From the NCBI GenBank assembly GCA_050575255.1, contig JBNZDD010013698.1, positions 3,621,280 to 3,685,279 on the forward strand: a stretch of DNA of 64,000 nt, in the 5' to 3' direction. Shown here one piece after another: positions 3,318 to 37,435 of the stretch. Position numbers and translations under genes: made by a program. Each line of letters starts with the position of its first letter. Position 1 is the first letter of the stretch. Below the pieces are notes generated by a model that was given only the letters and a program-made list of their open reading frames with translations, searched no databases and was not told the DNA's origin. This DNA is from Harriotta raleighana. Taxonomy: Eukaryota.

Positions 3318-3591
3318 GCCGATATGTATCTTGTGTAGTTCTCTGCATCACCACTTCAAATTGCTCCCACTATCAAAAGAGTAACAGACCTGTACGCACC
3401 TGTAACTCACCCTTGTGTTACACCCAATTGAAAGGACAAAGCTTGTTATTGTTTTGTAGGGAATCTCTCACAGTTCAAACAGACATTATGCAAAAATATC
3501 CGACACTCATTGGTGTGTTAGGCTTTACTGACAGCCTCGTGAATAAAAAGCTGGTATCTGCTGCTATGCAAAAACTTTGTACGCCTAGCAT

Positions 3592-6071: not shown

Positions 6072-6357
6072 GTGGAGTCTTGTAGCTCAATAGTTATAGC
6101 ACTCAGCTCAATTCCAGGCAGGACGAAACCTTGGGCAAGTTTCCTTACTCCACACGCCTGATAATAATCCCTCATAAAAAACAATAATTAATTGGTCATT
6201 TCAATCCACGACTGTATGTGGGACACTGCTGTGCGTTATTGACTACCGCATTTCGCCCACATATATAGTCAATTCACTTTACAGTATATTCTGTGAAGTG
6301 CTTTGAGACATCTCAAAGAGGTGAAAGGGCTATATCAAATGCAGGGATTATTATTAC
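6072..6357 (+). mobile_element. tRNA-derived DeuSINE-type SINE with an L2-like 3' tail
   Basis: A-box-like head GGAGTCTTGTAGCTCAATAGTTATAGCAC, Deu-like core TGTGGGACACTGCTGTGCG..GACTACCGCATTTCGCC, tail ATCAAATGCAGGGATTATTATTA. Many near-identical copies occur in the window. Confidence 0.85.
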
Positions 6358-7574: not shown

Positions 7575-7990
7575 AGAAACGGCATGTGGCTGGGGAAATA
7601 TAATAAGATTAACAAGACTGTGGCTCTGTGATTTCCTTCCACTTGTTCTAGAGGCGAGAAAATAACCAGAATGTGTAAAGGAGAGAAGCCCCCTGGCCAT
7701 AGCTTCACCAGCATTCATGTCTCGGTTTTGGGCAGAAGATTTTGGAACCTGTGGGGACCAGGTGCGCTTAGCATAGGATTTGAAACAGGCCTTCCCTCAA
7801 GGCAGATGTCACAAAGAACAGGTGTTAGACGAACCGCAAGTCCCAGTTTGGTTTTGTAGGGTGAAGGTCTCTCTCCCAACTGAGATCTCTCCCTTTGCCA
7901 AGAGCAAATACTGTCCCCAAGAGCATCAACAAATTCAAGTTAACTCCAAAAAGTGTGTAATTCTTATACGACTCTATTTCCAATTCAATA
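7575..7990 (-). mobile_element. Ancient, decayed RTE-like LINE RT fragment
   Basis: Minus-strand frames give remnants resembling the RTE RT C-terminus (ET(W)ML, NKWKEITE, LGDSI), with stops and frameshifts. Confidence 0.4.
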
Positions 7991-8744
7991 AATAATTGAT
8001 TAAAAACTGATAGCAATTGACAAGTTTATAAGACTGGAGCAGAGATTCCACCCGGGTTTAGATTTACACTCTTTTAGCATTTCAAAGTATGCAGAATTTG
8101 ATAAAACCTGTAATTCTTTTATGAATTACAGGAAAGAAAACACTGGAGTGGATTGTAACATGCTGAGAAATGAGACTAAATCTAGACTCGATTTATATTT
8201 ACTCCCCAAAATTTCAAGGAAATATATATTATCCACAAAGCTGAGCAATGGGTCTCCAGCTCAGACTGTGGTGTCAGAACTGTCAAGACTTGTCAAGATG
8301 ATACACCTTATTCATATCCTCCAATTTCTGTTGCTCTATAGCTCCCCTTACACTGAGTACCAGATAATGACAATCCCTCTAGATATTTACTGTCATGCAT
8401 TTCTCTACATTTACTATTGCCATGAAACTATAAATTCAGGTTTGCAGGTCAGGAAACTCCAGCTTATTGGTGCACTGCAGCTTCCTAAACAATTTTCTAT
8501 TTTTATTAGAACTCTAAAACAGATCAAACCTCTCCTGCTACATGATCCCATGCTCGAATCTGTACTGAAATCAAAGCTTTGAGCCCCTTCAGTGTGTGAT
8601 TCTTATTTTGACCAGCTGATTGTAGAAACCATTCCTTGGAAGAGTGGGTACTAGAAGTCTCTAGTAAAAACTCTCTCTTCCCAACAAGTCACTATTGGGG
8701 AGAAATTCCACCTGTGCTTAATTTATTCTTTTAGTGTAGTATTT

Positions 8745-8993
8745 CTTTTTTCGGCCTTGCTGCCCCATTCTCTGGAACTCCATCCCACAGTCCCTTCACC
8801 TCGCTTTCTCCCTTGCCTCCTTCAAGGCTGGTCTCAAGACCCTCCTCTTCAATTGTGCTTCTGCTGTCCTCCCCACTCTCTCCCTCCTCTCATAACTCTC
8901 TCCCACACTACTCATTCTGCTCAGGACCTTGACTGTTCAGCACCTTGGGACATCCTCCCAACGTGAAAGGCTCTCTTTAAATGTAATTTGTTG
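8745..8993 (+). mobile_element. L2 3' end fragment
   Basis: CTCTGGAACTCCATCCC...CCTTGGGACATCCTCCCAACGTGAAAGGCTCT..AAATGTAATTTGTTG matches the 3' end of the 2.2-kb L2. Confidence 0.8.
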
Positions 8994-9814
8994 TCTAGAG
9001 CATTCTGAATTTTGAAAGTTGAATTCAGTCTTCTCTACTACAGCACTGAAGGAGTACTGCTTTCTCAGAGTAGCCATCCTTGGATGTGATGGGAACAACA
9101 ACAACTATTTGCATTTATATAGCCCCCTAAAGATAGAGCCAGGTCTTGGAGCACTTTATAAGGATGGTGGCAGACACCAAGCAAGGGGAGGAGGGCATAA
9201 GCACATCGAAAGAAGTAGATTTAAAGGAGCCAGGAGAAAATAACAACAACAACGTTACACTTGTATAGCGCTTTTCACATCAGGAGTACATCCCAAGGTG
9301 TTGGAAATACAGCAGGAAAAAAGGGGAAATGGAAAGGAAAAGAGTCCCCTGTCCCCCCACCCCCTGATCAAAAAAGGTTCATTCACCTCCTGATTCTTTG
9401 GGGGACACTGCTGTGCCCAAACTGGTTGTCACATTTGTGTACAAAAGAAACAGTCACAATAACAGGAAAACTCTGATGCGCTTTGAGACATTCTGATGCA
9501 AGACTCTGGGTAAAATGTAGGGATTATTATATTTATGTCTAATATCATCTTTTCAATAAAAGTCTTATCTAAGAAATGCTTCCTTTTAAATCAAATATAC
9601 CAAACTCTGCGATTTAGGTTTAGAACTTCAATGTTCTGCCCAAATTTGATGCCAGGAATGAATTTATCAAATCTAAGCAGAATCTCACAATGAATTATAG
9701 GTCACAAAATTAGACTTATGCTTCACTGCTCCGGCTTCCCTCCTCAGTGTTGTTCTTCTATACTCATTGCAAAATGTTATAATCTGCCATAGTGTCCGAA
9801 CATTGATGATTCAG

Positions 9815-10145
9815 TCTTGAGAGATGATGGCTCAGAGAGGACTTTATGGAAGCATATAAAAGGTTCAATGGGATTACAAAAATAAACTCAGATCAATACT
9901 TTAGGATTCATCAGACAGTAGAACAAAAGGACAGGTTTAGAATTGCAAAGGGAAATTCAGGACAGATATCAGGAAGTTTTTTTTTTACTCAGGGTGCAAT
10001 TAATGTCTAGAATGGGTTGCCAGGGAGGGTGATTGATGTGGTTGATACCGAACTCATTTAAAAAACAGCTTGATGCTATGATGGGGGAATGTTAGGATGG
10101 AGGTTCTAGAAAAATGAGATTGGATGGGCTGATAGGCCTTTATCC
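9815..10145 (+). mobile_element. Old CR1 3' fragment
   Basis: AAATTCAGGACAGATATCAGGAAGTTTTTTTTTACTCAGGGTG..GGATGGGCTGATAGGCCT resembles the CR1 ORF2 end and 3' UTR. Confidence 0.65.
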
Positions 10146-11541
10146 AATCTAATTTGATGATATTGTGATCTAGGTTCTATCAACCTTTATTCCTGCCACT
10201 GATCAGATCCTGCTGCCTTGTATACATAGGTCTGTTTTCTGCACATTTCTAAATCCTACCACTTCACTGCCCCAATCTCACAGCCAGAGTGGTTCTGGAT
10301 TTATTTTATTTTCTTACCATTTAGGAGCATTCCGAATTTAGAAAATTGTTGTATTCAATTTTAACTTTAAATTAATGTTTTCATAGTTTTTCAAAGTTGA
10401 TGGAATATTGGCTCAGAATCAAGACAAATATCTTATGCTTTAAAACATTGAGAGAATAGAGTAAATCCTGCAGCCAGATACCTTTTGTACCCCAGTGTTC
10501 TCCCAGAAACATTACTGAACTGATGTAGCTTTTAAGACTGTGTTAAAGAGCTAAAATCGAGTCAATATACATTCCATTTCTTTTTCACATAACACTACAC
10601 TGCTACTAACACAAAATCTTGTATTCGCAAGCAAGAGCTGAGAAAATCTGATTTTTTCCTCTTCCAGTCAGTTGCTTTTGCTGAACAATGTTTTATTTTC
10701 ACTTCGACAGCTTTTGAAATCAGGATGAAAACCAGGAATAATTAGCACTTTCAAACTGGGCAGTAAACACAGGCTGACTTTGACAGATTCCCAAAGCACT
10801 TAGACCAAATCACCATTTCCTTCTGTCAAAACATATAATGTGGTATTAGCAAGGTATGTCAATGTATTAGCAAATGATGTACCTTCTACCTCAGAGTTAG
10901 AAATGGTTGCTATTATTTTAACTTGCATCAGTGTTTCCATAAAAGGCACACTGAAGTCAAATGCATTGCTTTCCAGCATCGTCACAAAAATAGCAATAAG
11001 TGTGGGTGAGAAACTAGGCATCTGAATAGATGAGTGACTATGTGGGTGAGAAACGGTGAGCACCTGTGTGGGTTAGAAACTCTGTAGGCAAGAGAATGAC
11101 TTGGCTTATTCTTCAGTGCAGTCAGGAAATTCGTATTCAAACTTATGTCTATTTCATTTATTTCTAATTTTATTCATTATGGGTCTAATTTGTGATGTTC
11201 ACAAATCCAATTCCTTGTGGCAGGCGCAATGTCTGACCTACGAAGTTTGTGGTGTCATCCTGGCTAAGTTGGAAACCAATACCAAAGGCGCTAGCTCTAT
11301 TAGATGCAAGGATATTTTTCATTAGATTTAGTATCGTCAGTCAAAAAGACGCGAAAGATGATCCATAAAGTAAATTACTGGTCGCAAATTGGCTTTTGCC
11401 AGGGTTAGCAATTTTATTTATCAAGTCTGTTAGCATTTCAACAACAAATTGCATTCAAATAGTGCGGAGCTGATATCCCACAATTTCAGATGATAAAATA
11501 GAATTGTAAATAATCTAGCGACTCAAAGCTTAGACGTCATC

Positions 11542-11680
11542 TTGCTAAAAGAAAACATGGCCAAGTTCTGGTTCATCTGGTCACTGACAACATCACTTCC
11601 TGTCTTATGCACAAGCGCATCTTGTGAAGTGATGCTGAGTGTGACCCTATGAACCAGAATTTGTCCATTTTGTTTAGCAG
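11542..11680. repeat. Imperfect ~140-bp palindrome (old MITE-like hairpin)
   Basis: Left arm ATGGCCAAGTTCTGGTTCATCTGGTCACTGACAACATCACTTC vs reverse complement of the right arm ATGGACAAATTCTGGTTCATAGGGTCACACTCAGCATCACTTC. Confidence 0.75.
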
Positions 11681-14600
11681 GGGAACTTGAATTAGCCAAA
11701 TTCCAGGTTTTTAAATAATAAATAACAACCTTTCTAACCTTTTCTCCTAACGATTGAAAAGTTGGTCAGTTTAACAATATAAATCTTAACCAGCCAACAT
11801 GGGTAACAACCAAGAAATGTAGACATAAAGTATCACTAAAGTAGAAATGACACAAATTAAGTGGTACCTTTTGACTGTCTAGCAAGAAGTACATGTATAT
11901 CTTTGATCTTTAGGTTAACAATTGTTTAAAAGCTGTCCTCTGATAAGATGAACTCTCTCTATACGACTTTTGGCAGCAAAACCGCTGCGAATTTGACCAA
12001 ACATTCAGCATAAGGTTTGGCTCGAGCAGTGTGAAATGTGCTGGAGTCATGCTGCTGAAAATACCTGCAGGTGGTTTCAGGAGCAATGCCATTCACACAG
12101 GATATGTAAATGTGACAGGTGCCAACTGCACTCAACGCATTCACGCAAAGTCCATCCAAGGTTCTCAAGAAGCCCCAAAGACAACAGCTATACTTCGATA
12201 CTCATTCACTACACGGCCAGGAATTAAATAGTTTGAAAAACTGCAGTAATAGCCTTTTTTTTAAAACAGAGGTAGACATTTATTTGGGGAGGAGGGGTTT
12301 GCGAGGCTATGGGGAGAGAGCTGAGGAATAGGATTAAATTGCTCTTTTTGAAGAGCCGGCACAGACTCGATGGGCCGAATGGCCTCCTTTTGTGCAGTAA
12401 GATTCTTTGATTCTATAATATGTCCTGAATTCAGTCAGTCTCTGAACACGTGGCAAACCACATTTGTAAACTGTATTGTAACATTATTCGATGAGCTCTT
12501 TAAGAACATTAAAAAAACACTCACTTTGGCATTCTACCGACATGGATGTTGCTATATGTTTGTTTATCAACAACAATTCACAGCGCCTTGGGACATCCTC
12601 CCAACATGAAAGGTGCTAATACAAATGTAATTTTGTTGTTGTTTTCTGATCCCAAATAAAGGCAGTGTGGAGCTGGGAAGTATCAGCCCATATCACTGCT
12701 GCTAGGAGCATAATAACCCCAATATAATGTGATCTGGAATTAATCAGTCCCTGAACATGTGACAAACCACAAAAAGCCTAATTAATAACCAAAACCTTGA
12801 ACCAAACTCGGATATGATGATCCACTGCCCAATTATGTTTCTCATTTTATTTCTCTGCTTCCTGTTGAGAACATATTAGATTGTTATATGGGAAGCCACA
12901 ATGCAAGGAACAGCTTGCAATCCTTAAACTTTCATCTTCTTTATTATCAAATAATGTATATTAATGTATAAATAATAAATTTTTTGTGTTTATTCCTTTC
13001 TAGCCCGTTAGCTTTTTTTCGGCCTTTTGTTTAGAGCCAGTCATTACATACATTACTTACTTGTCTTACGTTGAGACACTTTTTAAAACTTTGTGTAATA
13101 GCACTGAGCGGATCAGAACTAACTGTGACAAATGAACCACTTTTCTTTAATGATAATAATAATAATCCCTTGAATTTGATATAGTCCCTTATCAAGTTGT
13201 GGAGTCATCGCAAAGCAGTGGAAAGAAACCTCTTTGAGACTCGCTCCCAATGTGAAAAGTGCTATATAAATTTAAATTGTTATTGTTGAACAACCATCTA
13301 ATCCGCAGGTAACAGTGCTACTATCTTACACACTTAGATATTGTGACATTATCTGATTATATTCATTTTTATTAGGTTGAAAATGTTATCAATCCTCATT
13401 TTATATTCCACAATATAATTTATTTTAACCTTGTTTTAAAAAAAAAACCTGGTATTTTAATCAGGAAAACAAATGGTTACTTTTTATTTTACTCAGATCC
13501 TTGCAATATCCAACAACAACAACTTTGATTTACACCTCCATGTTGGATGGCATCTCAGAGTGCTTAATATCCCATAAATAAAAATCTCTATCATGTCAGA
13601 CGGTTCACGTTCAATAAGTAAATCTGCCTTTTTGTTTTTCTAAGTTCTGATTTCAAGGCTGCGACTTATTCACAGTTTTGTTCCATTCTGTTAAGTATTA
13701 CACACATAAAGGAGTGAATTCTGCCCTCTTTACAATGCACAACAACATTCCTGTGTGCACAATGGATCGCTGCATCATGGCTATACAGATACAGGGACAC
13801 ACACTGAACAGTCATTTGTGTCAGTATCTGTGTATAGTACTTCTGGTGAAGGAAAATAAAATCCAACGTTCCCATTAAATGTCAGGTAGAAGTCGCAAAC
13901 AATATGTAAGAGTGAAACCAGAAAAGGGCAGAACCATGAATGTGGAGCTGAGAGGAAAGGGGATGGAGAAGACTAGACTAGTTGCAGTGACGAAGGTGGC
14001 AGAGAGAACCATAGTCATAGAAAGAGGGAATGTCATTTGTGACTTTGACTATCGCAGTCTTGATAGTGTGGGCAGCACGGAAGCTGGATCGGAGGGGCTC
14101 AGGGAGTGCAAGGAGAGGACATGGCATTCACTCATACGAAGGAGAAAAATTAAAGAGCAACTTACCCTGAGACACTTCTGTGAACTTGTAGTAGTCAGTT
14201 GCACAGTGGTCAGTTTCAGAGTGACAACAATACCAGCCTCAAATAAGTCTGTAATCCTCCTTCTCAGCTGAGCGGAAATTGGCACATTGAGACTTTAAGA
14301 GGCATTTATTAATACAATAATAATAATATTGCATTTAATATAAAGTTTTCTTGTAATATTTACCTGAACTGGTGGTTGGGACATCAGTTTAACACTTCAT
14401 CTAAAGAACAACACTTCCAGCAATATAACATACACCCAGTGTTACATTAGAGTGTCAGCCTAAACTGTGCAGTTAAAGTCCAATGTATGCTTGAACTCAA
14501 TACCTTCTGATTCAGAGGCAGCAGTGCTACCAACTCAGACCAAAGCAGGATATATAATAACTTGTTTTCCAACTTTCCCAAACTATAATTCAATTATACT

Positions 14601-14719
14601 GGGGAATACAGCACTATAATTTTATCTTATTCTGAATTATAAATTGCAAAATGCTATGTAACATCTGATAATGCATTATGACTCGCAAATCGTCACTCAA
14701 TAACCTCTGTGTCACAATA

Positions 14720-15345
14720 CAATAAAAGCCTGTTTATCCGTGTCTCGATGAACCAGAAATCCCATTGAACTGGAACCTCCAAAAAAAAATCCCAGTTCAA
14801 TAAACCGGAAGTTATCTGGCAGCATAGTGATGACGCATTTAAGAATCAATTGTTGCACACGAATACTGGTGCAGATACTCGGCTGGCCGCTAGTCGAGTT
14901 TAAACTCGCTCCTTTTAAAAGTCACAATACTGCCATTTTTTTTCTTCTGTGGGGGCTGCCATTGCGAAGTTAAGTATAAATAATAAAGTATTAATACAAT
15001 ATTCTGTTATTATAGTATCTGTTATTAGTGTATTTAGTCTATTATTTATATAGTATTGTTCAACATTTACAATAAAGTAGCCATACAATATTCTGTTATT
15101 ACAGTATCTGTTATTACTGTATTTACTCTATTATTTATATGGTACAGTGTTCAACATTTACAATAAATACCCATACAATATTGTTATTATCTGTTATTAT
15201 TTAGTCTATTATTAATATGGTATGTGTTAAAATAATTTTTAATTTAAAAAAGATTTTTTTATTTTTAAAAAAAACATTCAACCGGAAAACCATTCAACCA
15301 TCACTGGCCAGGTCCCATAGATGCCGGATAAACAGGCTTTTACTG
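14720..15345. mobile_element. Non-autonomous Tigger/pogo-type MITE, 626 bp
   Basis: Left TIR CAATAAAAGCCTGTTTATCCG vs reverse complement of the right end CAGTAAAAGCCTGTTTATCCG (20/21). TA at 14718-14719 and 15346-15347. Confidence 0.88.
14993..15222. repeat. AT-rich ~89-bp tandem repeat (about 2.5 copies) inside the MITE
   Basis: TACAATATT(C)TGTTATT recurs at about 14995, 15084 and 15174 with similar intervening sequence. Confidence 0.8.
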
Positions 15346-15769
15346 TATAATGGATTAATACCCCAATGCAGACACCATGATATATTAAGTACATGGAATA
15401 CACTGAATGTCAACATACATCACCGCTCATGTTCCTAACAAAACATAATGAAAGCACACATCAACTGCACAACATCAATCAAATAACAGTACCCATACAC
15501 CAAACTGAATTCAAGGTTATTGTATAACATGGAACTTTGCTCTTCTGGTTTCTGACAACACTTGAAACATTGCTGAGATCACTATCATGCAACCACTGTC
15601 AGCTGCCCAACAGCTCTGTGGATTCTAGAAACTGCTTTTTTTTCTGCAGAATTTAGTTTTCGAACCTTTGTTTCAAGTGTCAAGTGTAATGTAGAAGGTT
15701 GTCATAGAGCATTCATTGTGTCACTAATGGCCAATGTTATTGCTAGTGAATGCAGAAACATGAACATAC

Positions 15770-15889
15770 CTGTAGCAAGTTCTTCGGTTGTAGGGTTTGG
15801 AGTATATCCACCAGCGTATCCAACCTGAGTGGAAGAGATGCCATTCTGAGCCCAGAACCTTTTCTCAGCACCCCGGAAACAGCCCATAC
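15770..15889 (-). CDS. MSRA: MSRA-like exon (equivalent to vertebrate MSRA exon 3, the catalytic-Cys exon), 120 bp, phase 1-1
   Basis: ttttttaaattcag|GT ATG GGC TGT TTC CGG GGT...GCT ACA G|gtatgt translates to (G)[39 protein letters not shown](G). This aligns without gaps to mammalian [40 protein letters not shown]. Orthologue vs paralogue is not resolved. Confidence 0.93.
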
Positions 15890-16867
15890 CTGAATTTAAA
15901 AAAATATTAATAACATAAACCACCATACCTAAAACAAACACCCTTCTTATACTCCTCCTGTACCGTTAACTGATGCTTCTAACAGAAAGCTACATTACAG
16001 TGGCTCACCACTCTGTCAGCTAGTGCCAATCTGGACAACAACAATTTGGATTTGGATTTATATAGAGCCCTCCATGCCAGATGGTATCTCAGAGCGTTTA
16101 AAACTCTGGGTTTAAATCTAGTTTAGACTGATGAAAGTTTCCTCTAGAACTTAATTAAACTGTCTGGAACTCTGTGCCTCTATACCTCTGCCTCAACACC
16201 CTTTTTGCCTCTTTAAATCCCTCTCAACTGTACTTATGATCACCTCCTCTTACTTCTCTCCCTCACTTGATGTCAAAACCTGTTATTGTACAACACTCTG
16301 AGATGCTACCCTGCATGAACAACAACAAGAACAACAACAAAATTACATTTAGAGAGCGCCTTTCACATTGGAGGACATCCCAAGGTGCCGAATAGTCAGG
16401 GGTCGGGACCCGAGCCTGGGGAAGGGGCATGCTAGGGGGGAGGATTCGCAGAGAGGTGGGAGGGGCCAGAAGGCATGATCGAAAAGGGTGCTATATAAAT
16501 GCGAGTTAAGGCTGTTGTAACCCTAAGTCCATTACTCTTAAATGAAACCTATTTGAAGGAGACTCAAACTGGGTACTATTATACATGGGTCCAATAGCAT
16601 TGAAACTTCTCCACGTTTGGCATGAACTGGAATTCTGACTCGGAGAGAACACAAGATGGAAATGGCCCACTGATATAAAAGGGATTGTTCTTCTGAGGTT
16701 AGAAAGGCAAGCACCGAACCACATTGTTGTGGCACCATTAGAAGAAGGTTTGTTCTACATTTACACAGATTATATCCCTTACGGAGGAAGGTATAATACA
16801 ATATTTTAGTCCCCAAAATATTGTACGATTTGTTTTACAAAAATTCAGATTTGGGAGATTTGGAAAT

Positions 16868-17570
16868 TCACTAAAAGTAGCAACACAGGTTAATAAGGCC
16901 ATAAAAAGTGCAAACCAGGCTTTGGGGTTCATTTCTAGAGGGATATAAATGAAAAGCAGCAAAATTATGGTAATCTTATATAGAATCTTGGTTAGACCAC
17001 ACTTAAGAATACTGTTTGCAGTTCTGGTCCCCATATTGTGGAAAAATATAGAGGCAATGGAAAATCACAAGGATGATCCCAAAAATGCAAGGTTATACCT
17101 ATCAGGAAACACTGAACAAGCTTGGACTTTTTTCTCTTGAAAAGAGGAGGGTAAGGGATGACCTGATAGAGGTCTTTAAAATGATGAAAGGTTTTGATAG
17201 GGTAGACATAGGAGGGATGTTTCTTGTGGGAGAGACCAAAACCAGGGGACATCAATATAAAATAGTCACAAATAGATCAAATAGGGAAGTTAGAAGAAAT
17301 GTCTTTATGCAGGGAGTANAAATAGTCACAAATAGATCAAATAGGGAAGTTAGAAGAAATGTCTTTATGCAGAGAGTAGTGGGAATGTGGAACTTGCTAC
17401 TGCAAGGAGTTGTTGAGGCAAATAGCATAGATGTATGTATTTAAGGGGAAGCTAGAAAGGTACATGAGGGAGAAAGGAATAGAAGATTATGCTGGTAGGC
17501 TTAGTTGAAAAGGGGCAGGAGGCGGCTTATGTGGAGCATAAACACCGACATAGACAAGTTGGGCTGAATA
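16868..17570 (+). mobile_element. CR1 LINE 3' fragment
   Basis: LYRILVRPHL, LGLFSLEKRRVRDDLIEVFKMMKGFD and TRGHQYK..QRVVGMWN motifs, followed by a CR1-like 3' UTR. Confidence 0.9.
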
Positions 17571-20500
17571 TTCTAATGTAAGATTAAAGCATGAAACCTC
17601 CCATAAAACAAACAAAAGGCAAACTGGGATCAACAAAGCACTCAAATGAAAAAACGTAAACGCATGATAGCCTTAAAAAGCAGCTCAAACATGACAAGAC
17701 ACAAGTGTGTCTATGTACATCAAACTCACCCACAAAGCTCAACTCCAAGACAATCTTGGAGTGATCTGGGAGTTTAGGTGACTTGCATAAAGGTAACATT
17801 GGCTTTCAGAACTCTAAGACACCATCCCAAGTGAAGGACACTATATCAATGTGAGTTGGTGCCATTTCCTATGTAAGACCCAATTTACAACTTGAGACAC
17901 TTGCACTATTTGAATTGCGGATTTCCTGTTTGAGCACATTTTCAACCCCGAATGATTTCTAGCTGGAAGCGCAGGATGATCTTAATTCCCTTGGCAATGA
18001 AATATGATTTGCATTAAATATTTTCAAAAGAGATAATTGTATTCAGTGCTTCAGCTGGAAGCCAAATTGAATACTCAGGCATCACTTTAAATGTTTGCTG
18101 TTAAGGTTTCTCATAAGTGTAACCAGAACTACTTTGTGACATGACCTCCATTGGGTCTAACTCTCCTTTGCAAGTTGACATTCAGGTGGTACAATTACAG
18201 TACAGGTCATTCAGTCCAACTGATTCTGATACTGTTGATTCTCCACACAAGCCTCAACCCTCCTAATCGCTGCAATTAACCCCCTTTATCCTCTTCTTTA
18301 TGCATTAAGTTTCTTCTTNCCACACAAGCCTCAACCCTCCTAATCGCTGCAATTAACCCCCTTTATCCTCTTCTTTACATATGCATTAAGTTTCTTCTGA
18401 AACATTTTGATACTTTTGCTTCAACCACAGTTTCAGAGGTGAGTTCACATTCTTATCCGTCTCTGTGTAATGAGCTCCTCCTAAACTCGTTCGAGACCAC
18501 TTTGGGTACTTTGAACTCATATAGTCTAAGATGAGTGATAAGTGCTGAAGGTGTGCTGTATTGTTAGAGATACNTTGGGTACTTTGAACTCATGTAGTCT
18601 AAGATGAGTGATAAGTGCTGTGTATCATGCTTCGAATGAGATATTAAATTGACTAAGATCTTGTCTGTCTGTTCAAGCACAAAAACACCCACAACAACAA
18701 AATTACCCTTATATAGCGCCTTTCACATCAGGAGAATGTCCCAAGGCGCTGAACAGTCAGGTCAGGATCTGAGCAAGGGGGAGGGGCAGAGTAGGGTGGA
18801 GGGAGCGAGTTAGAAGTTGGAGGGAGAGAGTTCGGAGGGCGGCAGAAGGCAAGATCAAAGAGGAGGGTCTTGAGACCAGCCTTGAAGGAGGTAAGGGAGA
18901 CATAAAAGTTCCCTTGGAACTGTCCAGAAACAGAAGAGAGTTCTTGCAGTGTCCTGACCAACAATCTCATTGAAGAAATTGGTCATCCATCATAGCTGTT
19001 TGTGGGACATTGCTATGCTGCCACCTGCATGCATAAAATACACAATCACTCCACTTTACAATATATCCAGCACTTTGGGTCATCCTCCTGATATGAAGAC
19101 ACTATATACTGTAAATGAAAATCTATATTGTATGCTGTGAAGTGCTTTGCGACATGATCCCTGGACCATGAGCTCAGTCCTCATTATAGTGTTTGATCAC
19201 ACAATCTTCAGATCCAGAAGTGAGAAGGCTGCCAACTGAGCCAAGCTTACAGATAAAACAAAAGCTTCACATAAAAACAAAGCTCAAAGGCAAATCTTAA
19301 ATATAAAATATGTTTGGAGATGTGAATGCTTCATTATTTTTATTCAAATTTTCAAGAGACAAAAGACTCATTTTATGCCTCCCCCACTTTCTGAGTGTGA
19401 AGGTGGTTGAATTCAGTAACAATATCAATCCGTATGGAAGCAGTTTCAAGGCTACCTTCAGTCTGCCAAACCACACAATATTGTACATCAGTCTCACCAC
19501 CTACAACAAGATGGAAATCTCCTTCTGCAAGATATCGCAATTGGCTGCCACGTTTCGCTTACAAATTTGCAGTCAATTCACTTCACAGTATATTCTGTGA
19601 AGCGCTTTGATACGTCGATAAGATGTGAAAAGCGCTATATCAAATGCAAGGATTATTATTATTATTATCATTTTCAATGCTGTATGTGTTTAGAGCTATT
19701 AAAACTCATCCTATTTTTGTTTAGCAATGTGACAAAAATGTGTATCTGTGGGTAATCCTTCAGCAACCTGAAACCCACCTGTTCTCTAGAATTCTCTCCC
19801 TGAATCTCGAAAGATCTATTTCTACTTCTAAACCCTTCTCTGTGACTATGCTTTTGGTTATCTCTCTTCTATCCTCTCATCTTCCACTGTGATCAGGCTC
19901 TCACTGAGAAGGGCTTTGACTCATTTAACTACATACTGTATATGAAAAGAATTGTATTGTATTGGAATTTGGGCAATTTTATAAACCAGTAGAAAGTTTC
20001 TTCAAACAAATATGTATCACATTTTCATCCCTGTGACTAAAGCATTGAATCATCTTTAATTTGTTCAAGTAATTATTCATGAAGATGACTTTTTAATATC
20101 TATATAATAGCTTCAGCAGACTACAAGATTACACGGCATTTCCAAAAACAATTCTTGCATATTATGACATGAGTCAGTTGTAATCTGTTCCACTTATTAA
20201 TATGGAGAAGCTCAGACACTTTTCAGAATTAAGCTGATGCTGACCCATTTTCACTTTGCAATATATGCCATAAGCAAACCACCATCTTTTGTATCTTAAA
20301 GCAGTTTCAAAATGACTATCTTTTTCTAAATTCAAATACACCTAAATAAAGATGGATCTAGGATCACTTAGAAATGCTCTTAACAAAGCCATCGAAAATA
20401 TTGTGGATTAAACTTTGAAATTGCCAAAGGGATACCTAGTGACATACTGCATTTCTAATGGATTTTCGGTCTTTGAAGCTCATTATTTGATAGAGGAACA

Positions 20501-21249
20501 AGTCACTATGTCAGCAATGAAATCCACTCACAGTGAGCAAATAAGAATTTAAAATCAAAATGGGACGAGCGAAGCAGCCAGAATTGATCTGATGACATGA
20601 GACCAAAAGGCTTCACAATACTGGCAAACCATGGACAAAGCAGGCCTTAGCTTGAATACCCTTTAATTAATACCTGAAAAATTAAAACATGAATCATGTG
20701 AATCCACTTCACATGATTAGTACTTCACAGAAAGCCACACAGATAGGACATTTTACAAACCCCAAAACAGAAAGAGCACACCAGCACCAACACACACGGT
20801 TTAGATGCACCTTTTCTGGTTCAGGCTTTAAGCAAGGATTGTACGAGGAACAGTTTATCAATTGATTCTAAATTCCCCCTGACTTATTTTTTCTACAAGA
20901 CTGTCATATAATTAGCTTCAAGTCTTGTCAGAAATGATTAATACTATGCTTTGTTTCCAGGTATAAGTCTGAAAAGCCACACTGGCACATTCAATAAGGA
21001 GATTTTTATCAGTGACGATAATACATTTTCCCACTGCATTCCCAGTTGTAAGGGTATGGCACTTAAATCAGAAGATACACCAATTCACAGGATAAGCTAC
21101 AATGCTTTTGTGGTTTTCTAATCCAACTAAAGCAGCTGTTACCCCCCAAAACAGGCTTGTAACACTTTTCTGTGAGCTGCAACCACAAGATAAACTTTAC
21201 TTTATTTTACCTTGATTAAAGGATATTTCTTGTTTTCTGTACTTAGTTC

Positions 21250-21645
21250 AGCCTGGTTCAGTAGGTAGCATTCTTGTCGATGAGTCAGAGTTGTGGGTTC
21301 CAGTCCGACATTGGGACTTTGAACTGACATAGTCTAAACGGATGCAGGTGTAGTCCTTCCGGGGGTCTTCCTTCAGATGAGATGTTAAACCGAGATTCCT
21401 TTTGCCTGTTCAGGTGGTCCCTGAAGATCCCATGGCATGATTCAAAAAGAGAAGGGAGTTTCTCCCAGTGTCCCAGCAAACAATCCTCCCAAATAAAATT
21501 GATCATTTACTTCATGGTAGTTTATGGGAAAATGGGTTACCACATTCACCTGGCAAAATACAGTCACTACACTTTTGCAGTAAATCCTGTGAAATGCTTT
21601 CAAACATCCACCTGACATGAAAGGCAATATACCAAAAGCAAGCAC
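21250..21645 (+). mobile_element. Older DeuSINE (SacSINE1/AmnSINE-like)
   Basis: Head TCAGTAGGTAGCATTCTTG..TGAGTCAGAGTTGTGGGTTC, then CAGATGAGATGTTAAACCGAG..AAGATCCCATGGCA, then an L2-like tail. Related decayed copies at about 6590, 14380(-), 38390(-) and 50285. Confidence 0.7.
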
Positions 21646-22954
21646 TATCATCATTATTATTCACTCCCTTATCAAGATAGCAAGCAGACATTCCTGTAAG
21701 CATTTCTTATTCTTTTGCTGGCTGAAAGATGCTCAGGAATTGTCTGAGATATCAGGTCTTCTCTTTCTAAGGTAAAAAACTCTAGCTGCTCTCCCTCTCA
21801 GTGGAGAAGAAATAAATGGGGTGAAAAGAAAACAGGCTGGGTTGACAAAAACAATTGTTTTATTAGATATTGGCACGAAGAGTACAATGGTCATTACTAA
21901 TAAAACTTCTATTAGCATCTTATTGTGTTCAGAGTTATGGGACAATGTATTCCTGATATAGCATTACTTGATGCTTCAGATTCAGTGCACATCATTACAA
22001 TCATCCTAGCATTTAATACAATGCATTTCATGTTAGGAGGTATAAACTGTATATGAGTATAGTTTATCATCTGTAGGGAAACACAGCAATATAACACAGA
22101 CAGCCATGAAGTGAATTGTTGACCAACAGAGTGGGATAAACTCCTTTCTCTTTTCAATTAGTGTAAAGGGATCTATAACGTCCACCTAAACAGACAGATG
22201 GGACCTCACTTTAACCTTGGTCTCATCCGAAGGACAGCTACTGCATGAAGTAAGCAGGATCTCCTTGGGGCTGAACTGGCTCCAAGGTGACAGATTTGGC
22301 AACAGAATGTTGGAATCAAGCCAGCCCTCTGTGGCGCTCTTGGTAATCTGGTGCCTGAGCCAGGTGGATCTACAGGACTCCAGGGCACTTGCTGGTGTCA
22401 AACCAGGCATTCTGGCTCATCAATAGCATTTGGAGGAGCAGACCAATCACTCGGGGCAGGGATTCTGCCGAGTCAGCAACTGTTAACTGTGCAAGCCAGT
22501 GGGATGGACAAGTAACGGGAAGTTTGTGAGGCAGGGCTTTCAATGTACGCTTTCTATGTATGCCACATCAACTTACAAATACTCAGCTCCAAGACACTAT
22601 TAGTTTGGAAGTCGAGTTCTTGCAAGAGGGTCTTAAATATATGAGTTTCACTGCAAGAGAAGCACTGTTGCATCCCAAAGCTGCCTTTTCCAGGAATTAG
22701 GAATTATTTATATGGTCATTTTCCCAACAAGCACATGTCAACCTTATATACCCGATAGCAAAGTAGCAAAAATCCAGTTCTATTTTCATACTTAATCGTG
22801 ACTCAATCTGAGAGTGGCAGCCACCTCCCTATTTTGGAATCAGTTGTTGAAAATAGTGGGGTTGAGCAATAGAAGGCCCCTTTATTTTAATTCTATGAAT
22901 GACTCATGTAATTGGAAAATAAACTATCTTACTTATCATGCAGGAATAACTTAC

Positions 22955-23023
22955 CAAATATAGCTATCTCTACACCTTGAGGGAATGGTTCGACAATCCT
23001 ATTTCCGTTGACGTGATGTGTTG
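22955..23023 (-). CDS. MSRA: MSRA-like exon (equivalent to vertebrate MSRA exon 2), 69 bp, phase 1-1
   Basis: ccttacatttttcag|CA ACA CAT CAC GTC AAC GGA AAT AGG ATT GTC GAA CCA TTC CCT CAA GGT GTA GAG ATA GCT ATA TTT G|gtaagt translates to (A)THHVNGNRIVEPFPQGVEIAIF(G), vs mammalian AKHHVNGNRTVEPFPEGTQMAVFG. Splices in frame to the 15889 exon. Not captured by the ORF track. Confidence 0.95.
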
Positions 23024-23631
23024 CTGAAAAATGTAAGGAACAGTTTTTAAATGAAGACAAAGAGAAATGCAAGGCAATCTAATATAATTATGGGAAATGT
23101 CAAGCCAACATATTTCCTGGGAGAAAGTGAAGAATTTTAATCTACTGTGCAGAAGGCACACAGTTTTCAATACATTTAATCCCGTGAAACTGTTATTGCA
23201 ACAAAACAACAACCTCCTACGAAACACCAGTGGGAGTCTTTATATAAACAAAAATATAACTTTTATGTAATTCAACACAATAATAAAATATGCAACAAAG
23301 TGTTTCCAATTTTACGTAACTAAAACAATGCTAACCTTCACGTGGTCTCCTTTCACGCAATTTAGCATGTCAGAACTCACAGGAGGTTTATATACTATAT
23401 GTAGGAGAAACATGTGGAATGGGAAGCAAATATAGCTTTATCATTATCCTTATTGGTTTGCCAAAGTTCTATGATACACTACATATCTAGCCTTTACCTT
23501 TTGCCTAAATCATTCCAAAATTACTATATGTACAGCACTGGTTGAATTTTCATTGGCTTTTGTAAATGTAGAGTGTAGCAAGGAAATCCTTGGTTTTAAT
23601 GGCTCGGCTATGCTTCTCCTGAGTTACAGGC

Positions 23632-24012
23632 TGGAGATCTGTAACTCTGTGGTTAAAGAACTCGCCTTGTAAGTATGAGACTTGGGCTTGATTCCTGGCA
23701 GGGTGAAATGTTGGAGAAGGATCCTTACGCCACATGCCTTTGTTTACGTAGCAGTAAGTAGGAACCTGATTGTTAGTGGATTGGCAGTCCGCTTTTGCAA
23801 GGGTAATAATTTCTTCAAAAGAAATAATCATAATAATCAATTGGTCACTTTAATCCATTAATGATTGTGGGACACTGCTGTGCACAATTGGCTGCCATAT
23901 TGCGCCCATAAAATCTACAGTCAATTCATTTTACAGTATATTCTGTGAGACTCTATGAGACGTTTTGAAGACGTGATACGGTGTTATATCAAAAGCAAGG
24001 ATTATTATTATT
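23632..24012 (+). mobile_element. tRNA-derived DeuSINE-type SINE (longer variant)
   Basis: tRNA-like head GGAGATCTGTAACTCTGTGGTTAAAG, core GTGGGACACTGCTGTGCACAATTGGCTGCC and tail GCAAGGATTATTATTA. Confidence 0.8.
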
Positions 24013-26999
24013 TATATATTATTATATATTTGTGGGATTCTTGATTGCCATCTTTCTTTGAATAATACAAGATGTTGTTTTGCAAACTAACATTGGTTTC
24101 AATTGGAGACAATAACAATTTTAACCTTGCTAGCCACTAACCGTCTGAAAAGCAAAAGCAATAGTAGAAGGCTTTACCTCTGTAAAAGTGTTGGTTAAAA
24201 AGATAGCTAAATACATAATCCAATTTGAACTATACTTGCCAATTATTTTTAAATTCAATTTAGTTCCAATTGATTAAAATAGCTCATATTAACATAATTT
24301 TGACCAGTCACATCCCACTGACAGCAAAAAGATGAACGATCATTTCATGTTGGGTGAATTGGGTGAGGACGAAATATCGGTCAAAAACAATTTTTGTAAA
24401 TATTCTAATGGCATAATAATCCTAACATTTTCATGTTGAGATGTCTCAAAATGTTTCACAGAGTATATTGTAAAGTATATTGACTGTATTTTGTAGGTGA
24501 AATTAAATCTTTAACATCCACAAAAAACTCCAGAACAGACAGACAAGCCTCACTTTAACATCTTTGTCAAAGGACAAAACTATTTTACAATTCTTTAAAT
24601 CACTAGAATGCTGCAAGTTAATTTTTTTTTTAAAATTTACTTTTGAGAACCATTTGAAAGTATGGTCACGCTCACTTTAACCACACAATATAATAGCTAA
24701 AAAAGAACGGGAAACAACCTGAGTGTTATATTCATTTAACGTCTCACTGACTTATTTCACAAAGTTTTTGTTTTAATGAATTCAGTACAATCTTTCTTTG
24801 GAAATAAAATAACAATCATTCCAGGGATGAAGTGCTTTAGATGTCCTCCCAAACCAAAAAGGACTATATAAATGTAAAATTGTTATTATGTTCAATACAG
24901 TCGTTCAATCTACCACACAGGAAAAGACCATTAAGGGGGCTCAGCCGGATTTGCAGAAAAACATTCACCATGTTTAAGATTATTCAAACCAAACTGAGAA
25001 TTCCATGCTGTCCACCTTTTCATGGAAATTACAAAGATTTATATTGGAAAGGAATGTGTACTCTCTCCCTGGAGGATGAATGTTGCTTACTTAATTCCAG
25101 AGAGATTCAGGCATTGGTGGGCAAATAAGGCTCGGGAACTTGTTGAGGTAATGATGGATTCCAAGCAGCTAAAACTGCATAGCTTGCCATTGAAAGTGCA
25201 GTCTGGTAATTTTTCCTGCTGCTTGGCCATCCTACTAATTAGGCCTTTCGTTTGCAAGGTCAACAGAGTTCAGTGGGAATAGTCTCTTCCCCAATGACTA
25301 GTCTGTCCATCCAAGTTCTGCCAATGAGCCAGGTTAACTGGACGGAAATCAGTAGTGCCCTGGAGTACTGCGGACCCATCTGGCTCAAGACCAGGACTAC
25401 TAAGACCACTACAGAAGTTGGGCTCAATTCTGGCCTTTGGTTACCAAGATGTTACATTGGAACCAGTTTACCTTCAAGGAGACCCCAATTACTTCTTTAC
25501 CCCCCACGCCCCCTCCCCCACACCATTCCCTCCACCCACTACTCCCCAAAGGAGGATACTATGAATATTCACTGGTCAAGACATTTTATCACTATAGTAC
25601 CATTGTTCTTTACTATTGCAGCAAATTCAGGGAACCCATGTGAGCCACTGCAAGTCACAAAATCTTGAATCTGAACCTGAGCTTCGAACCAAAATTTTGC
25701 AAATGGGAGTGACAAATACTCTTCTAATTGGAAGAGACCAATTTTGATAAGTCCTGAGACAACATGAGGTGCCATTTAGAATGAATAATTATCTGATCGC
25801 TCTATTCTCCCAGTGTCCTGGCCAACAACCTCTCAAATAAAATTGATTCATGGCTTTCGTGTTCACCTTCAAAATACATTCACTACTGTTCACAGAGAAT
25901 CCTCTGAAGCACTTTGAGACATCATCCCGACAGGAAAGACGCTATATCAATTTGCAAAGATTAGTGTTAATCTGTAACTTTCCCCCTGTAATTTCAACCA
26001 CAATACCTACATTACACCTGGAGTACCACTTCCCCCCTACACTCTGTGCAATTCAATTTGGGCTTCGCTCCTTCAAAGTACTGTACACTGAAAAGTCTCA
26101 TACAGTCCAGAAACATTCTCGATGCCCAGAAACATTCAACTGATTTTTTTTGTTATCAAAGAATTAACTGCATGACCAGTTCTTTAATCCCCCACAAAAT
26201 TTCCAGTCTATTGACTTTAAAGTACATTCTGTAAAACACTTTAAGACGTCTCAATGCTACATTAAATGCAAGGATTGTTATTATTATTTTATTATTAAAT
26301 ATCAATAAAACAAACGTTCAGTGAATTTCAAAATCGGATGTAACTTTTAAAAGAAGTGTTGCAATGCAAAGTACAGCAGGAAGTTGACTGCAGGCTTGCT
26401 CACATTGCTCCCCTGACAAAATAATTGGCTCTTTGATTCCAGCAATTTGAATTCAGCAAGAGTCAGTTTATTTGGGATTATAATTAATTTGTGGAGTGAA
26501 TTCAGTGATCCTGCAGGTGAAGTGGTGCGGGGGAAAATGTGGATTCTTCTCCTCCGTATGACGCAGTTTTCTCTCTTTGTAACCCAGTGTTAGCAACAAC
26601 CACTCCATAGTGAGATACTGCGAAGACCAGATGCAACAACAGCAACAGCAAATTACATTTATATAGCGCCTTTGATGTTGGAAGGACAATTAAGGGTTTG
26701 CGTCTGAGCTGTCGGTTGGAAAAAAAGAGGAATAGAGGGCAGAGTTGGGAGGGTGGGAGGGTGGCCAAAGGCATGGGCAAAGGGGAAGGTTTTCATACAG
26801 GCTTTGGAGGTGAGGGAAGGGGCTACTATACATGTAGAGTTTCGGGATGGAATTCCGGAGGGTGGGGGCAGGAACGCTAAAGCTAGTGGAGCTGGGCGAG
26901 GATCGATTCACGGAGCTTAATATGGGAGGAAATGCAGAATGTTGAATAAAATCAACAATCTGAGAACACCGGTGTGATATGTTTTATTCCAGGTCCCCC

Positions 27000-27215
27000 T
27001 CTAGATCTTTGTGAATGAAACCGACAATTTGGGGCCAAGCATCAGGCAGGTCTGTGCTATGGATCCACACCAAGCAGGAACTGAGCAAAAATGACTGTAC
27101 ACTAGTCAAATTCATTTCATGTGGCAACCAGGATCACCAGTGAACCAAAGAGAGTTTCACTCTCACAGGTTGGGTGGATTCCAACCCAGATCTCAGAGAC
27201 AAAGGGACAACGCGA
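27000..27215 (-). mobile_element. Ancient LF-SINE-like fragment
   Basis: Minus strand CCCTTTGTCTCTGAGATCTGGGTTGGAATCCACCC...GCCACATGAAATGAATTTG..TACAGTC resembles my recollection of the LF-SINE head and core. Confidence 0.4.
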
Positions 27216-28794
27216 CTCCCAACCTAAAGGTCCAAATTTGTAAACAAAACAAGATTTTCACAAGAAGTAATTCCCCCCAAAAAAATTGCACTTCTAAAAA
27301 TACATAAAGATTTCACAGCATATTAATTTGCAGTTTGTATAATTGTACAGGAATTCTTTTCAATATAAAACCAGTAATGCTTATCTATTTAACAACCACT
27401 TTCTCTTTTAGGAAGCTTATAAAATACTGACCCGGATACACCACTCCAACGTATTTATTGTTCCCTTCTAGTCTTATTGCAATGTATTTTTCCACTGCAC
27501 AACATGATTGCCACCTTTTGAAAACAGAACCACATTCATTAGTATAATCAGATCACTTAACTGTCTAAAAACAATGCAAATCCAAATGCTAATGAGTCAG
27601 AGTAGAACATTGAAGGTTAAAGTGAGAGATGACTTCCATTCTTTTGTGTTCTGTTGCAAAAGAAGAGCAAAGGACACAACTGACAGTAATATGCCCAAGC
27701 AAATTACTTTCTCCGCAAGAAAACCATCAGAACCGAAATGTCGGAGGTGCAAAATTCACTAAGATTCTGTTTTTAGCAATTGTGAGTACAATTCAGCAGC
27801 ATTGCAACAGCAGTCTTCAAACAGTTGTCTCTTAATCAGAGGCCAAATCACAGTGAGAGGTGCTGAACTATTCAACTGACATAGAGTACGGTGTTTTGCA
27901 TAAATGTCATCGGACCCATTATTCAAATGCTTTGTTTTCAAATAAAAAAAACCTCTTCTCTTTCTTGCCTACCCTGGATCTCATTCCACACCCCCATCGT
28001 TACTGATAATTCAAAACATCCGAGCATCACTTCACATCACTAAGGTTTTCATGCAAACAAAAACATTTGTGAATGCTCTGGTAATATTTGTCAATGAGTG
28101 TAATGCAATGTAATCCTGTAAAATCCTTATAAAATAGTGGTCGTCTCCGGGTAATGGATAGAAGTGGAAACCTTTGCTGATTTCCACTTCGCTAATTGAC
28201 TCAAAAAAAGCCAAAATCAAACCAATTCACATATCCCTGTGAAGTGCTTTGAGACGTCTTGACAACATGATAAGGTGTTATATCAAATGCTAGGATTATT
28301 AATATTAACAAGCCAGTTGCACTGAAGCCAATTGTAATGCTCCAAGTGGCTGCGACCAGCTAACTTAGCACAGTTTGAATGGATTTGAACTTGGGAGCTT
28401 CCCAGTCTGGATGCTCATCCACATTGCTTTTAAAGATAGACAGCATTCTGTTACAAAAATCTGTTTCAACTTGTGAACGTTCCAAGTACCTTTTTGCCCA
28501 CATGTACCACTCCAACCTACCACAAATTATAAGCAGCAATTAATCCAGAACGATTCACTCCCCAGCAACCGAAAAACTGAAAATAACTCCCATTTAACCA
28601 TTTGCTGTGATCGTTATTATTATATTAAATACACTGTGCATGAATAAAATAATTAGTTTTGAATCAACAATATTCAGTCTGGTTGTGCTTTTGTGTTTGT
28701 TGGTGTTTCATTAGCCATGTTGTTCCCTGGGTTCAGTCATACAGAGTTATATCTTCCCCGAGTACTGTGAAACCTGATCAAGGTTTCCATCAGG

Positions 28795-29362
28795 TCTGAC
28801 TGGAGACTGTTTTCTACCTCCAGTTGTGACCCCCAGTCCCTTGATGTTCTGTCAGCTTGTCTGTTGGACATCAAGAGTTGGATGAGTGCTAATTTTCTGC
28901 AGTTAAATGTCAACAAGATGGAAGCCATACTCTTTAGCTCTCATTCAACGTCTCATCAACTGGTTCTGACCTCCTCAACCTATCCAACCTGTCCTTAAAA
29001 CTCTCAGAACTCGTGTGCAATCTAATCGTCAGGTTCGATCCCCACCTTTCTCCATCACATCCAGTCCCTCACCAGCACCGATTTCTTTCATCTCCGTCAC
29101 ATTGCCCGACTCTGCTAATACCTCACCCCAACAAACTGCCGAAATCTTGGTCCGTGTCCTTGTCATCTTTCGGCTGGATTACTCCAATGCTCTCTTCGCC
29201 AGCCTCCCCTCCTCCACAATTCACAAAATTCAGCTCATTCAAAACTCCGCCGCCCGGATTGTCACCTTTACCACACTTCATACCCTGATTACCCCATTCT
29301 TTGCCAAACTTCACTGGCTCACTGTCACAAATCGACTTCAAGATCCTCACTTTTGTGTTTAA
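28795..29362 (+). mobile_element. L2 LINE ORF2 fragment
   Basis: [41 protein letters not shown] and KLHWL motifs. Confidence 0.85.
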
Positions 29363-29489
29363 ATCAAATAACTGCACAGATAAGTTAGCCAATACCAGCT
29401 CCAAAAGTATACCATTTCTCATATTTTGCACCTTTCTAGAGGAAATAAAAATTCTATAAATAGCAGATATGTCACCAAAGCTCCCTCTG

Positions 29490-30728
29490 TCTCCTCGTCC
29501 TCTTTGACCTCCTTCTGCCTTCCATACTGTTGAACACTCTATCCTCCTCCACTGCCTTTCCTCTCCTCTCAACCTCATGGTTCTGTCCTTGAATAGTTCA
29601 GATCCTACCTCTCACACAGTCTCCATTTCATCTCCACAAATGGTTTCTCCTCCAGTCCCCAGACCATCACGTGCAATGTTCCTCAGGGTTATGTCCTTGG
29701 TTTCCTCCTTTTCAATATCTACATACTCCCGCTTGGTGACATCATCCACAAACCTGGGGTCAACTTCCACATGTATGCGGATGACAACCAACTCTATCTC
29801 TCTGCCTCCACCCTCAACTCCACTGCTGTCCAGACATCAAGTGCTGGATGAGTGCTAACTTTCTACAGTTGAACGTCAACAAGATCGAGGCCTTCCTGAT
29901 TGGCTCCTGTCAGCACCTGCACATTGCAGGAATTGACAGCCTCACCATCCAAGGATGCACACTCCACCTCACTTAGCGAGTCCGGAATCTTAGTGGATTA
30001 TTTGACCCTCAACTATTTGACCCTTTTCTACCCCACATCCGGGCCATGACCTTCTCTGCCTCCCCCCACCTCCACAACACCACCTAGCTCTACTACTGTC
30101 TCATACCATAGGCCACTAATACCCTTTACATGCATTCATAATATCAGGGTTTGACTATGCAAATGTCCTGCTTGTCAGCTTCCCCAACTCCTCCTTCCAT
30201 AGGCTGCAGATCATCCAGTACTCTGCAGCTTGTGTCCTCTCCCAAGAGAACCAAGATCCTTGATTCTATTATCCCCATCCTCGCCTGACTCCACTGGCTT
30301 TCACAAGAGGATACAGTTCAAGATCCTGGTCCTCATCTTCAAAGCCCTGCATGGACTTGGTCCTCCCCGACTTCTAACTTCTAATGCTCTACCAACCTGC
30401 CCGCTCCCTCTGCTCAGCTTCAGTCTGCTTCACATTCACTACCTCACCTGCCCACAACCATTGGCAGACGGGTCTTCAGCCATTCCATCCTCATCCTCTG
30501 GAACTCCATCTCGCAACCCCTCTGCCTTGACCCGACCCTTGTCTCCTTTACGATCCTTCACAAGACCCTCCTCTTTGAGTGTTTCTTCAATCACCCTCAT
30601 TCCCCCCCTGTCCTGCACCCACCCGATCCCAACCCCCAACTCTGGTATGCAACACTGATTGTCCAGCGTCTTGGGACATCCTTCTGACGTGAAAAGGACT
30701 ATACAAATGTAATTTTGTTATTGTTGTT
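29490..30728 (+). mobile_element. L2 LINE, 5'-truncated, RT domain to tail
   Basis: VPQG..LG and [13 protein letters not shown] (intact YADD), followed by a 3' UTR and tail AAATGTAATTTTGTTATTGTTG. Confidence 0.9.
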
Positions 30729-31148
30729 ACATAAGAGTTTCATGTACAATATTTCTTATCCGAATGTATATCATACTGGACCCTGGGAACACCAGGGAAA
30801 TCAAAATCTACAGCAGGGTTCCTGTAGGTCAATAGGAATTCTGAAACCATTTTTTTATTAAGGAAGCTCATTTAGAAATTCTGCACCACAATTAAGTCCA
30901 AAAGTATCCATATGTTAACAAAACAAGAGTGTAGCGTCAGTTTAAATATATTGTGTTAGAGTAGTATAATGCCTGATTTATACTGTATATTGTAAAGCAT
31001 ATCATTCCTATTGAATAAACTATATAGTGGAACACTCATATTGTATATAGAGTAAGGTAGTACTCCATTGATACTGTGTTGAGTATACTAGTGTATTAAA
31101 ATGCCTGATTTATACTGTATATAGTATATTGTACATTGATACTGCTTT

Positions 31149-31450
31149 GTGGAGTCCTGTAGCTTAGTGGTTAGAGCATTCGCCTTAGAAGCATGAGACC
31201 TGTGTTCAAATACAGGCAGGGGGAAACCTTGGGCAAGTTTCCTTGCTCCACATGCCTATTAACAATCCCTCAAAAAAATGATAAATTCGTCATTTCAATC
31301 CACGACTGTTTGTGGGAAACTGCTGTGAGCAATTGGCTGCCGCGTTTCGCCCACAAATATACAGTCTATTCACTTTACTGTGTATCCTGTGAAGCGCTTT
31401 GAGAAGTCTAAAAAATGTGAAAAACGCGATTTCAAATGCAAGGATTATTA
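31149..31450 (+). mobile_element. Full-length tRNA-derived DeuSINE-type SINE
   Basis: GGAGTCCTGTAGCTTAGTGGTTAGAGC (A box), GTTCAAAT (B box), core GCAATTGGCTGCCGCGTTTCGCCC and tail CAAATGCAAGGATTATTA. Confidence 0.88.
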
Positions 31451-37400: not shown

Positions 37401-37435
37401 AAACATGTCTTTCTAATCGAATAGTAAGCAGTTAC

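Follow-up and report, generated by a model that had tools for sequence, protein, structure and literature searches.

The MSRA gene of Harriotta raleighana is likely a pseudogene, with a frameshift and a premature stop, of an MSRA that had already been remodelled before; we put the probability of this reading at about 0.88. Judged from its sequence, the gene would yield no functional protein, and an intact second gene, here called MSRA2, likely does the repair in its place. The window, i.e. the whole stretch of 64,000 nt that was analysed (G000:C13698:3621280-3685279), is wholly internal to the MSRA gene, which is on the minus strand and extends from about 3.509 to 3.729 Mb on the contig C13698, thus over more than 200 kb. 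Its features are listed here, with window positions for those inside the window and contig positions for the others.

G000:C13698:3728623, beyond the window's right end, minus strand: ATG of a long first exon, with an ALPGR motif
G000:C13698:3704877, beyond the window's right end, minus strand: ATG of another first exon, MAMDYYRQ, as in Callorhinchus milii
22955..23023, minus strand: exon 2, 69 nt, AG/GT, open frame, THHVNGNRIVEPFPQGVEIAIF
15770..15889, minus strand: exon 3, 120 nt, AG/GT, open frame, carries the catalytic Cys
15879..15881, minus strand: TGT, catalytic Cys, kept (C51, E. coli numbering)
15873..15875, minus strand: CGG, W53R, found in this lineage only; C. milii has W
15834..15836, minus strand: TCT, Y66S, a further holocephalan change; Y in 8/8 outgroup orthologues
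15786..15788, minus strand: ACC, Y82T, common to organism B and C. milii
15774..15779, minus strand: CTT GCT, V85L and C86A; V85L confined to this lineage (organism B and C. milii have V), C86A common to both
1..64000, minus strand, rest of the window: intron with repeat remnants flanking exons 2 and 3
C13698:3586566-3586666, beyond the window's left end, minus strand: exon 4, 101 nt, frameshift
C13698:3565434-3565540, beyond the window's left end, minus strand: exon 5, 107 nt
C13698:3508819-3508977, beyond the window's left end, minus strand: exon 6, premature TAG at 3508896

The initial annotation had described two exons of 69 and 120 nt (23023-22955 and 15889-15770) with AG/GT borders and neither stop nor indel, all of which is correct, as are the codons it had read as Cys (TGT), Arg (CGG), Thr (ACC) and Leu-Ala (CTT-GCT); Y66S had escaped it. 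The "intact frame" holds for exons 2 and 3 and fails for the gene, as disabling lesions affect exons 4 and 6, which lie outside the window. Exons 2, 3, 5 and a first exon are open and have good splice sites. With 36.9 bits against a cut-off of 23.7 for PF01625, exon 3 belongs to the MsrA family, and its 39-aa peptide matches solved MsrA structures, the best being bovine MsrA (1fvg, E 8.9e-14). A search of the genome with the PF01625 profile gave ten matches: four exons belong to MSRA and four to the second gene on contig C13665, a fragment lies on C13638, and the tenth match is noise. Upstream of its ATG, the long first exon shows a stop in frame together with CT/CA repeats, and it is absent from all six C. 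milii MSRA entries examined; on sequence grounds, holocephalans may have lost the mitochondrial presequence. The window also holds decayed ORFs at 2237-3124, 17052-17444, 28970-29362 and 57107-57401, which resemble LINE reverse-transcriptase tails; three of them were tested against Pfam and gave no match. A gap of 768 N is located at 57402-58169.

Residue numbers were set by alignment to solved MsrA (E. coli C51, W53, Y66, Y82 and C86; the four shared labels correspond to mouse C72, W74, Y103 and C107), and the downstream labels E94, R125, D129, Y134, H186, Y189 and C198 were assigned by motif. Of these, R125, D129, H186, Y189 and C198 are what we take to be the customary labels. Conservation was counted in 361 fetched homologues, a redundant set with partial gene calls included. 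Position 53 is Trp in 361/361, C. milii included, position 82 is Tyr in 352/361 and position 86 is Cys in 340 of the 357 aligned. Among the 361, Thr82 and Ala86 occur only in three Callorhinchus milii entries; Y82 and C86 are present in four sharks and rays. Of the GCFWG motif of an active enzyme the window gene has kept the Cys and replaced the Trp by Arg. The oxygen-binding triad E94/Y82/Y134 is broken as well: Y82 is Thr and, because the frameshift directly follows the E94 codon, E94 and Y134 never occur in one product. A single Y82F substitution reportedly has little kinetic effect. The roles that the initial annotation had assigned to these residues agree with what the consulted parts of published accounts of MsrA catalysis say: in PMC6210582, "Tyr82 or Tyr134" donates the proton and a Trp forms the pocket for the methyl group, and the labels E94 and Y134 appear in PMC8417374. 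Mouse C107S kept 114% and 83% of activity (PMC13678007), and 74% remained for rat Y103A in an assay of radical scavenging, not of reductase activity (PMC5334523). In view of these two mutants, the effect of T82 and A86 on the enzyme may, by analogy, be modest.

Disabled downstream exons, which the initial annotation itself had named as speaking against its view, are what the assembly contains. In exon 4, a deletion of 4 nt directly follows the E94 codon (101 versus 105 nt); it is seen at the assembly level. When all exons are conceptually spliced, the frame shifts after E94, runs through KTGHIEVVLCTIQKKSALRSC and stops inside exon 4. Exon 6 reads EDYH*QY, with TAG in place of the first Gln of YHQQY and upstream of both the second Tyr of this motif and the two resolving, C-terminal cysteines, so that this end of an active MsrA is missing. 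In mouse MsrA, PMC13678007 gives 8% and no detectable thioredoxin-dependent activity for C218S and C227S, respectively. Skipping of exon 4 brings the frame back at the cost of E94, and the TAG in exon 6 still terminates translation. Within -60 to +45 of exon 4, four in-frame alternative acceptors were found, all of which lose GHxE (E94) and still end at this TAG. Hence none of the splice routes examined gives a complete enzyme. The coding exons therefore carry disabling lesions, that of exon 4 being an assembly-level observation and the TAG of the parent gene having less than 1x raw-read cover. C-to-U RNA editing of the CGG codon was considered and rejected, as the frameshift and the stop would stay unrepaired.

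The initial annotation had proposed a pseudo-enzyme or neofunctionalised paralogue. Against this stand not only the disabled exons; the gene is the true chimaera orthologue of MSRA and not a new paralogue. Its best protein match is MSRA of C. milii (85% over 40 aa). In a tree of 32 rows, for which 30 proteins were selected out of some 480 fetched and both genome genes were added with X at breaks, it joins C. milii MSRA with support of 100/99, both join shark and ray MSRA with 99/100, and the vertebrate MSRA clade has 95/95. The gene on C13665 stands outside the vertebrate MSRA clade, paired with the other MSRA of C. milii (100/100). On C13698 we found mir-124 at 3.767 Mb, MSRA at 3.51-3.73, a DCX pair at 3.417, SoxF at 3.39 and 3.27 and XK-related sequences at 2.80-3.05 Mb. 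This agrees with the human order, which we take to be mir-124-1, MSRA, RP1L1, SOX7, XKR6, so both tree and neighbours place the gene among the vertebrate MSRA orthologues; the names RP1L1, SOX7 and XKR6 are given from family and position, not from trees. A recent duplicate was rejected as its origin, as the whole-genome searches show two MSRA genes, one retro-fragment and no more. Of 40 candidates scored in a PARP-family search for a tankyrase neighbour, 22 matched, none of them on C13698.

The closest sequence, Callorhinchus milii XP_007902658.2 / UniRef100_V9KUL7 (P0003), resembles the MSRA gene in exon sizes and phases, in the MAMDYYRQ first exon, in its neighbourhood and in 164/182 compared residues; the unusual S66, T82, A86 and C125 and a CPIDP end are common to both. 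Unlike it, the window gene has W53R, V85L, other lineage-specific changes, the 4-nt deletion in exon 4 and the TAG in exon 6.

Some further observations concern this neighbourhood. The mir-124 precursor (L026:2193-2263, plus strand, 85.7 bits) precedes the long first exon by about 39 kb, and three weak tRNA-like matches near it are probably SINE heads. Two SoxF (SOX7-like) last exons (L035 and L036; C13698:3.274 and 3.388 Mb) are on the same strand, 114 kb apart and 93% identical over 1186 nt, the stop of the second being slightly earlier; from sequence comparison, the pair would be a tandem duplicate or an assembly duplication.

The second, canonical GCFWG gene that the initial annotation had suggested looking for does exist.

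G000:C13665:1832055-1835030 (L011:6056-9031): MSRA2, open from exon 2 to the stop

MSRA2 is canonical at every motif (GCFWG, NPTY.EVC, E94, YHQQY and both C-terminal Cys). It is of the MsrA-like or Xenopus "MsrA 1" type, and C. milii has it too (XP_042194806.1, P0367). Its exons 2-5 measure 69/120/105/107 nt compared to 69/120/101/107 nt in MSRA, thus the same sizes apart from the deletion, and both genes adjoin a SoxF-type gene. In contrast to the MSRA gene it is compact (3 kb versus more than 130 kb), has a canonical active site, an open frame and a C-terminal KDEL, and belongs to a separate clade. Its first exon was not found and is probably inside a gap of 920 N upstream (C13665:1829671-1830590). 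The neighbour of MSRA2 is an HMG-box SoxF-type gene, and an XK-related gene is on the same contig C13665. Because MSRA2 too is located by a SoxF-type gene, with an XK-related gene on the contig, the arrangement suggests that MSRA and MSRA2 are whole-genome-duplication paralogues. The divergent SoxF-type HMG-box gene itself (L012:6941-7768 and 9432-9770, minus strand) is about 8 kb from MSRA2, was missed by PF12067 and is possibly a fourth SoxF paralogue.

MSRA2 ends in AKDEL. Among its relatives, KDEL is found in Acanthochromis, where there is also a hydrophobic N-terminal stretch, KEEL in sturgeon and QQEL in turtle; C. milii MSRA2 (KKKL) and the four frog sequences shown have no such tail, and an xxEL end occurs in 5/308 fetched proteins with the QQY motif. 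MSRA2 might possibly be an ER-resident MsrA, and we leave it at a possibility because the first exon is probably in the 920-N gap. One literature search for a KDEL-bearing fish MsrA found no paper.

The changes in the MSRA gene fall into two layers. C. milii MSRA has an open frame and GCFWG, but also NPTTKEVAT and GMCQGND. Sixteen residues, including Y66S, Y82T, C86A and R125C, are common to both holocephalans and absent from eight outgroup orthologues. Branch lengths are 0.27 for the holocephalan stem, 0.006 for the C. milii tip and 0.14 for the tip of the MSRA gene, with 0.085 and 0.11 for the paralogue tips. When amino-acid changes were polarised over 182 sites, 13 fell to this lineage and 3 to C. 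milii, with 2 unresolved (p 0.021); taking the states of organism B moves one site and gives 14 versus 2 (p 0.004). The paralogue pair shows 7 versus 11 changes over 191 sites, with 6 unresolved (Fisher p 0.017 against 13 versus 3). In exon 5 and the remainder of exon 4 the protein is still identical to that of C. milii. An AlphaFold model (pLDDT 78), made of the C. milii orthologue and not of the window gene, matches bovine MsrA with TM 0.83 and E 3.8e-25, which confirms the fold only.

The initial annotation had held that the clustered changes were neither sequencing error nor decay. This holds for Y82T and C86A: these, with Y66S and R125C, are old and were probably kept by selection in C. 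milii, because its intact, slowly evolving orthologue has both. It is not sustained for W53R and V85L, which are likely decay in a phase of relaxed selection in this lineage, because they are absent from C. milii and belong to a branch with an excess of change. ACC (Y82T, 15786-15788) and GCT (C86A) are backed by all four read runs at a raw depth of about 1 per run, with 3 and 1 raw reads for the exon-3 stretch. CGG (W53R, 15875) is covered by one low-depth contig of run X1 that has a single difference, unplaced, over 185 nt, and falls within the end zone of a piece from run X5; it is consistent with the reads at a raw cover of at most 1x, and not firmly confirmed. At window position 15785 the assembly gives a Glu codon, but one raw read and organism B show the ancestral base, which makes it Lys; a polymorphism probably segregates here.

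Additional evidence comes from a retrocopy on C13638 (L017:4940-5145; G000:C13638:767.4 kb), in which the last 14 nt of exon 5 are joined to exon 6. It is 5'-truncated, identical to the parent at 169/191 positions (88%) and has the same TAG. In an independent sample (X2), one contig departs from the parent exon at 20 letters across 4818-4980 of L016, just as the assembled retrocopy does, which makes it very likely that the retrocopy's TAG is real. Both loci are also present in organism B, a relative sampled in run X5 that shows 19 differences over 290 nt around exon 3. Exon 6 of its parent gene carries a 2-nt deletion and a 1-nt insertion (depth 43), frameshifts unlike those of this genome, and its exon 3 shows no lineage-specific change in 95 nt, with S, K and V retained where the window has N, E and L. 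Since the retrocopy arose, 2 non-synonymous changes occurred in the parent versus 11 in the retrocopy (p 0.022). Between the retro-insertion and the split from organism B, there were 6 in about 92 nt of the retrocopy and 0 in the parent (p 0.03). The parent has thus fewer non-synonymous changes than expected for a gene already dead when the retrocopy arose. A contrast of exon and intron (3/95 versus 11/133, p 0.16) is not significant.

These counts bear on the time of death. The gene might have kept working for a long time once the TAG had appeared, either because TAG-CAG was read through or because the TAG arose twice, with recent and separate losses here and in organism B. The unequal numbers before the organism B split, the unchanged stretch of exon 3 in organism B and its different frameshifts are in favour of such a course. 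But the numbers are small, the exon-intron contrast is as given above and the shared TAG is simplest as one event; we consider this course quite improbable, and it would shift the timing, not the present status. Another explanation of the lesions, as errors of the assembly or as a single heterozygous null allele in a species with a working C. milii-type MSRA, is to be weighed because the exon-4 deletion is known from the assembly, CGG and TAG have such low raw cover and the ancestral base at 15785 makes the locus probably polymorphic. It appears extremely improbable, however, given three separate lesions 50-130 kb apart, the recurrence of the TAG in an unlinked retrocopy backed by another sample, and a copy in organism B that is also broken.

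If the gene made a functioning pseudo-enzyme or redox sensor, its pocket rewired, this would have to be a truncated MsrA-fold protein with C51, R53 and T82, made by skipping of exon 4 or from an alternative acceptor. The open exons with good splice sites, a predicted exon-4-skipped isoform in C. milii (P0005) and the few non-synonymous changes of the parent exon 6 relative to the retrocopy would agree with it. Yet E94 is lost and the TAG reached on every in-frame route, the Trp at position 53 is invariant among the homologues, C. milii included, changes are in excess on this branch and the frameshifts of organism B are independent, which renders this explanation highly improbable.

For the pseudogene, the following history can be proposed. 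An ancient duplication would have given MSRA and the compact MSRA2, each by a SoxF gene. On the holocephalan stem MSRA would then have gained Y66S, Y82T, C86A and R125C while still under selection, as in C. milii. Finally, selection would have been relaxed in the lineage of this genome, where the TAG, the frameshift, W53R and other changes piled up. Redundancy with MSRA2 may have permitted first the remodelling and then the loss. A full-length MSRA transcript is predicted to be a target of nonsense-mediated decay. A bolder version, which we regard as doubtful, is that early holocephalan MSRA became a changed-pocket enzyme under tighter constraint in Callorhinchus than the canonical paralogue and that this chimaera lineage lost it, leaving only a KDEL-tailed, ER-resident MsrA. 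If so, the substrate range or chemistry of C. milii MSRA would be altered, and these chimaeras would be vertebrates in which neither cytosol nor mitochondria can repair Met-S-sulfoxide.

The locus is an ordinary disabled gene and warns against judging a gene of more than 200 kb from two of its exons. It is a case in which nature has dispensed with the main vertebrate MSRA, apparently in two chimaera species or more. The intact orthologue of C. milii, for its part, provides a naturally occurring Y82T/C86A variant of an active site that is otherwise near-invariant. If the KDEL tail really sends MSRA2 to the ER, the loss of MSRA would not be a matter of simple redundancy, as the tail could mean another compartment. 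Literature searches, with subscription papers and supplements outside their scope, found no paper on holocephalan MSRA.

Disabled, unitary-type pseudogenes left once one ancient duplicate is lost form a general class. The MSRA gene resembles these in its orthologous position, the exon structure kept, the combination of frameshift and nonsense mutation, the accelerated branch and the intact duplicate elsewhere. It is unlike them in that its ancestor had lost conserved pocket residues while still under selection.
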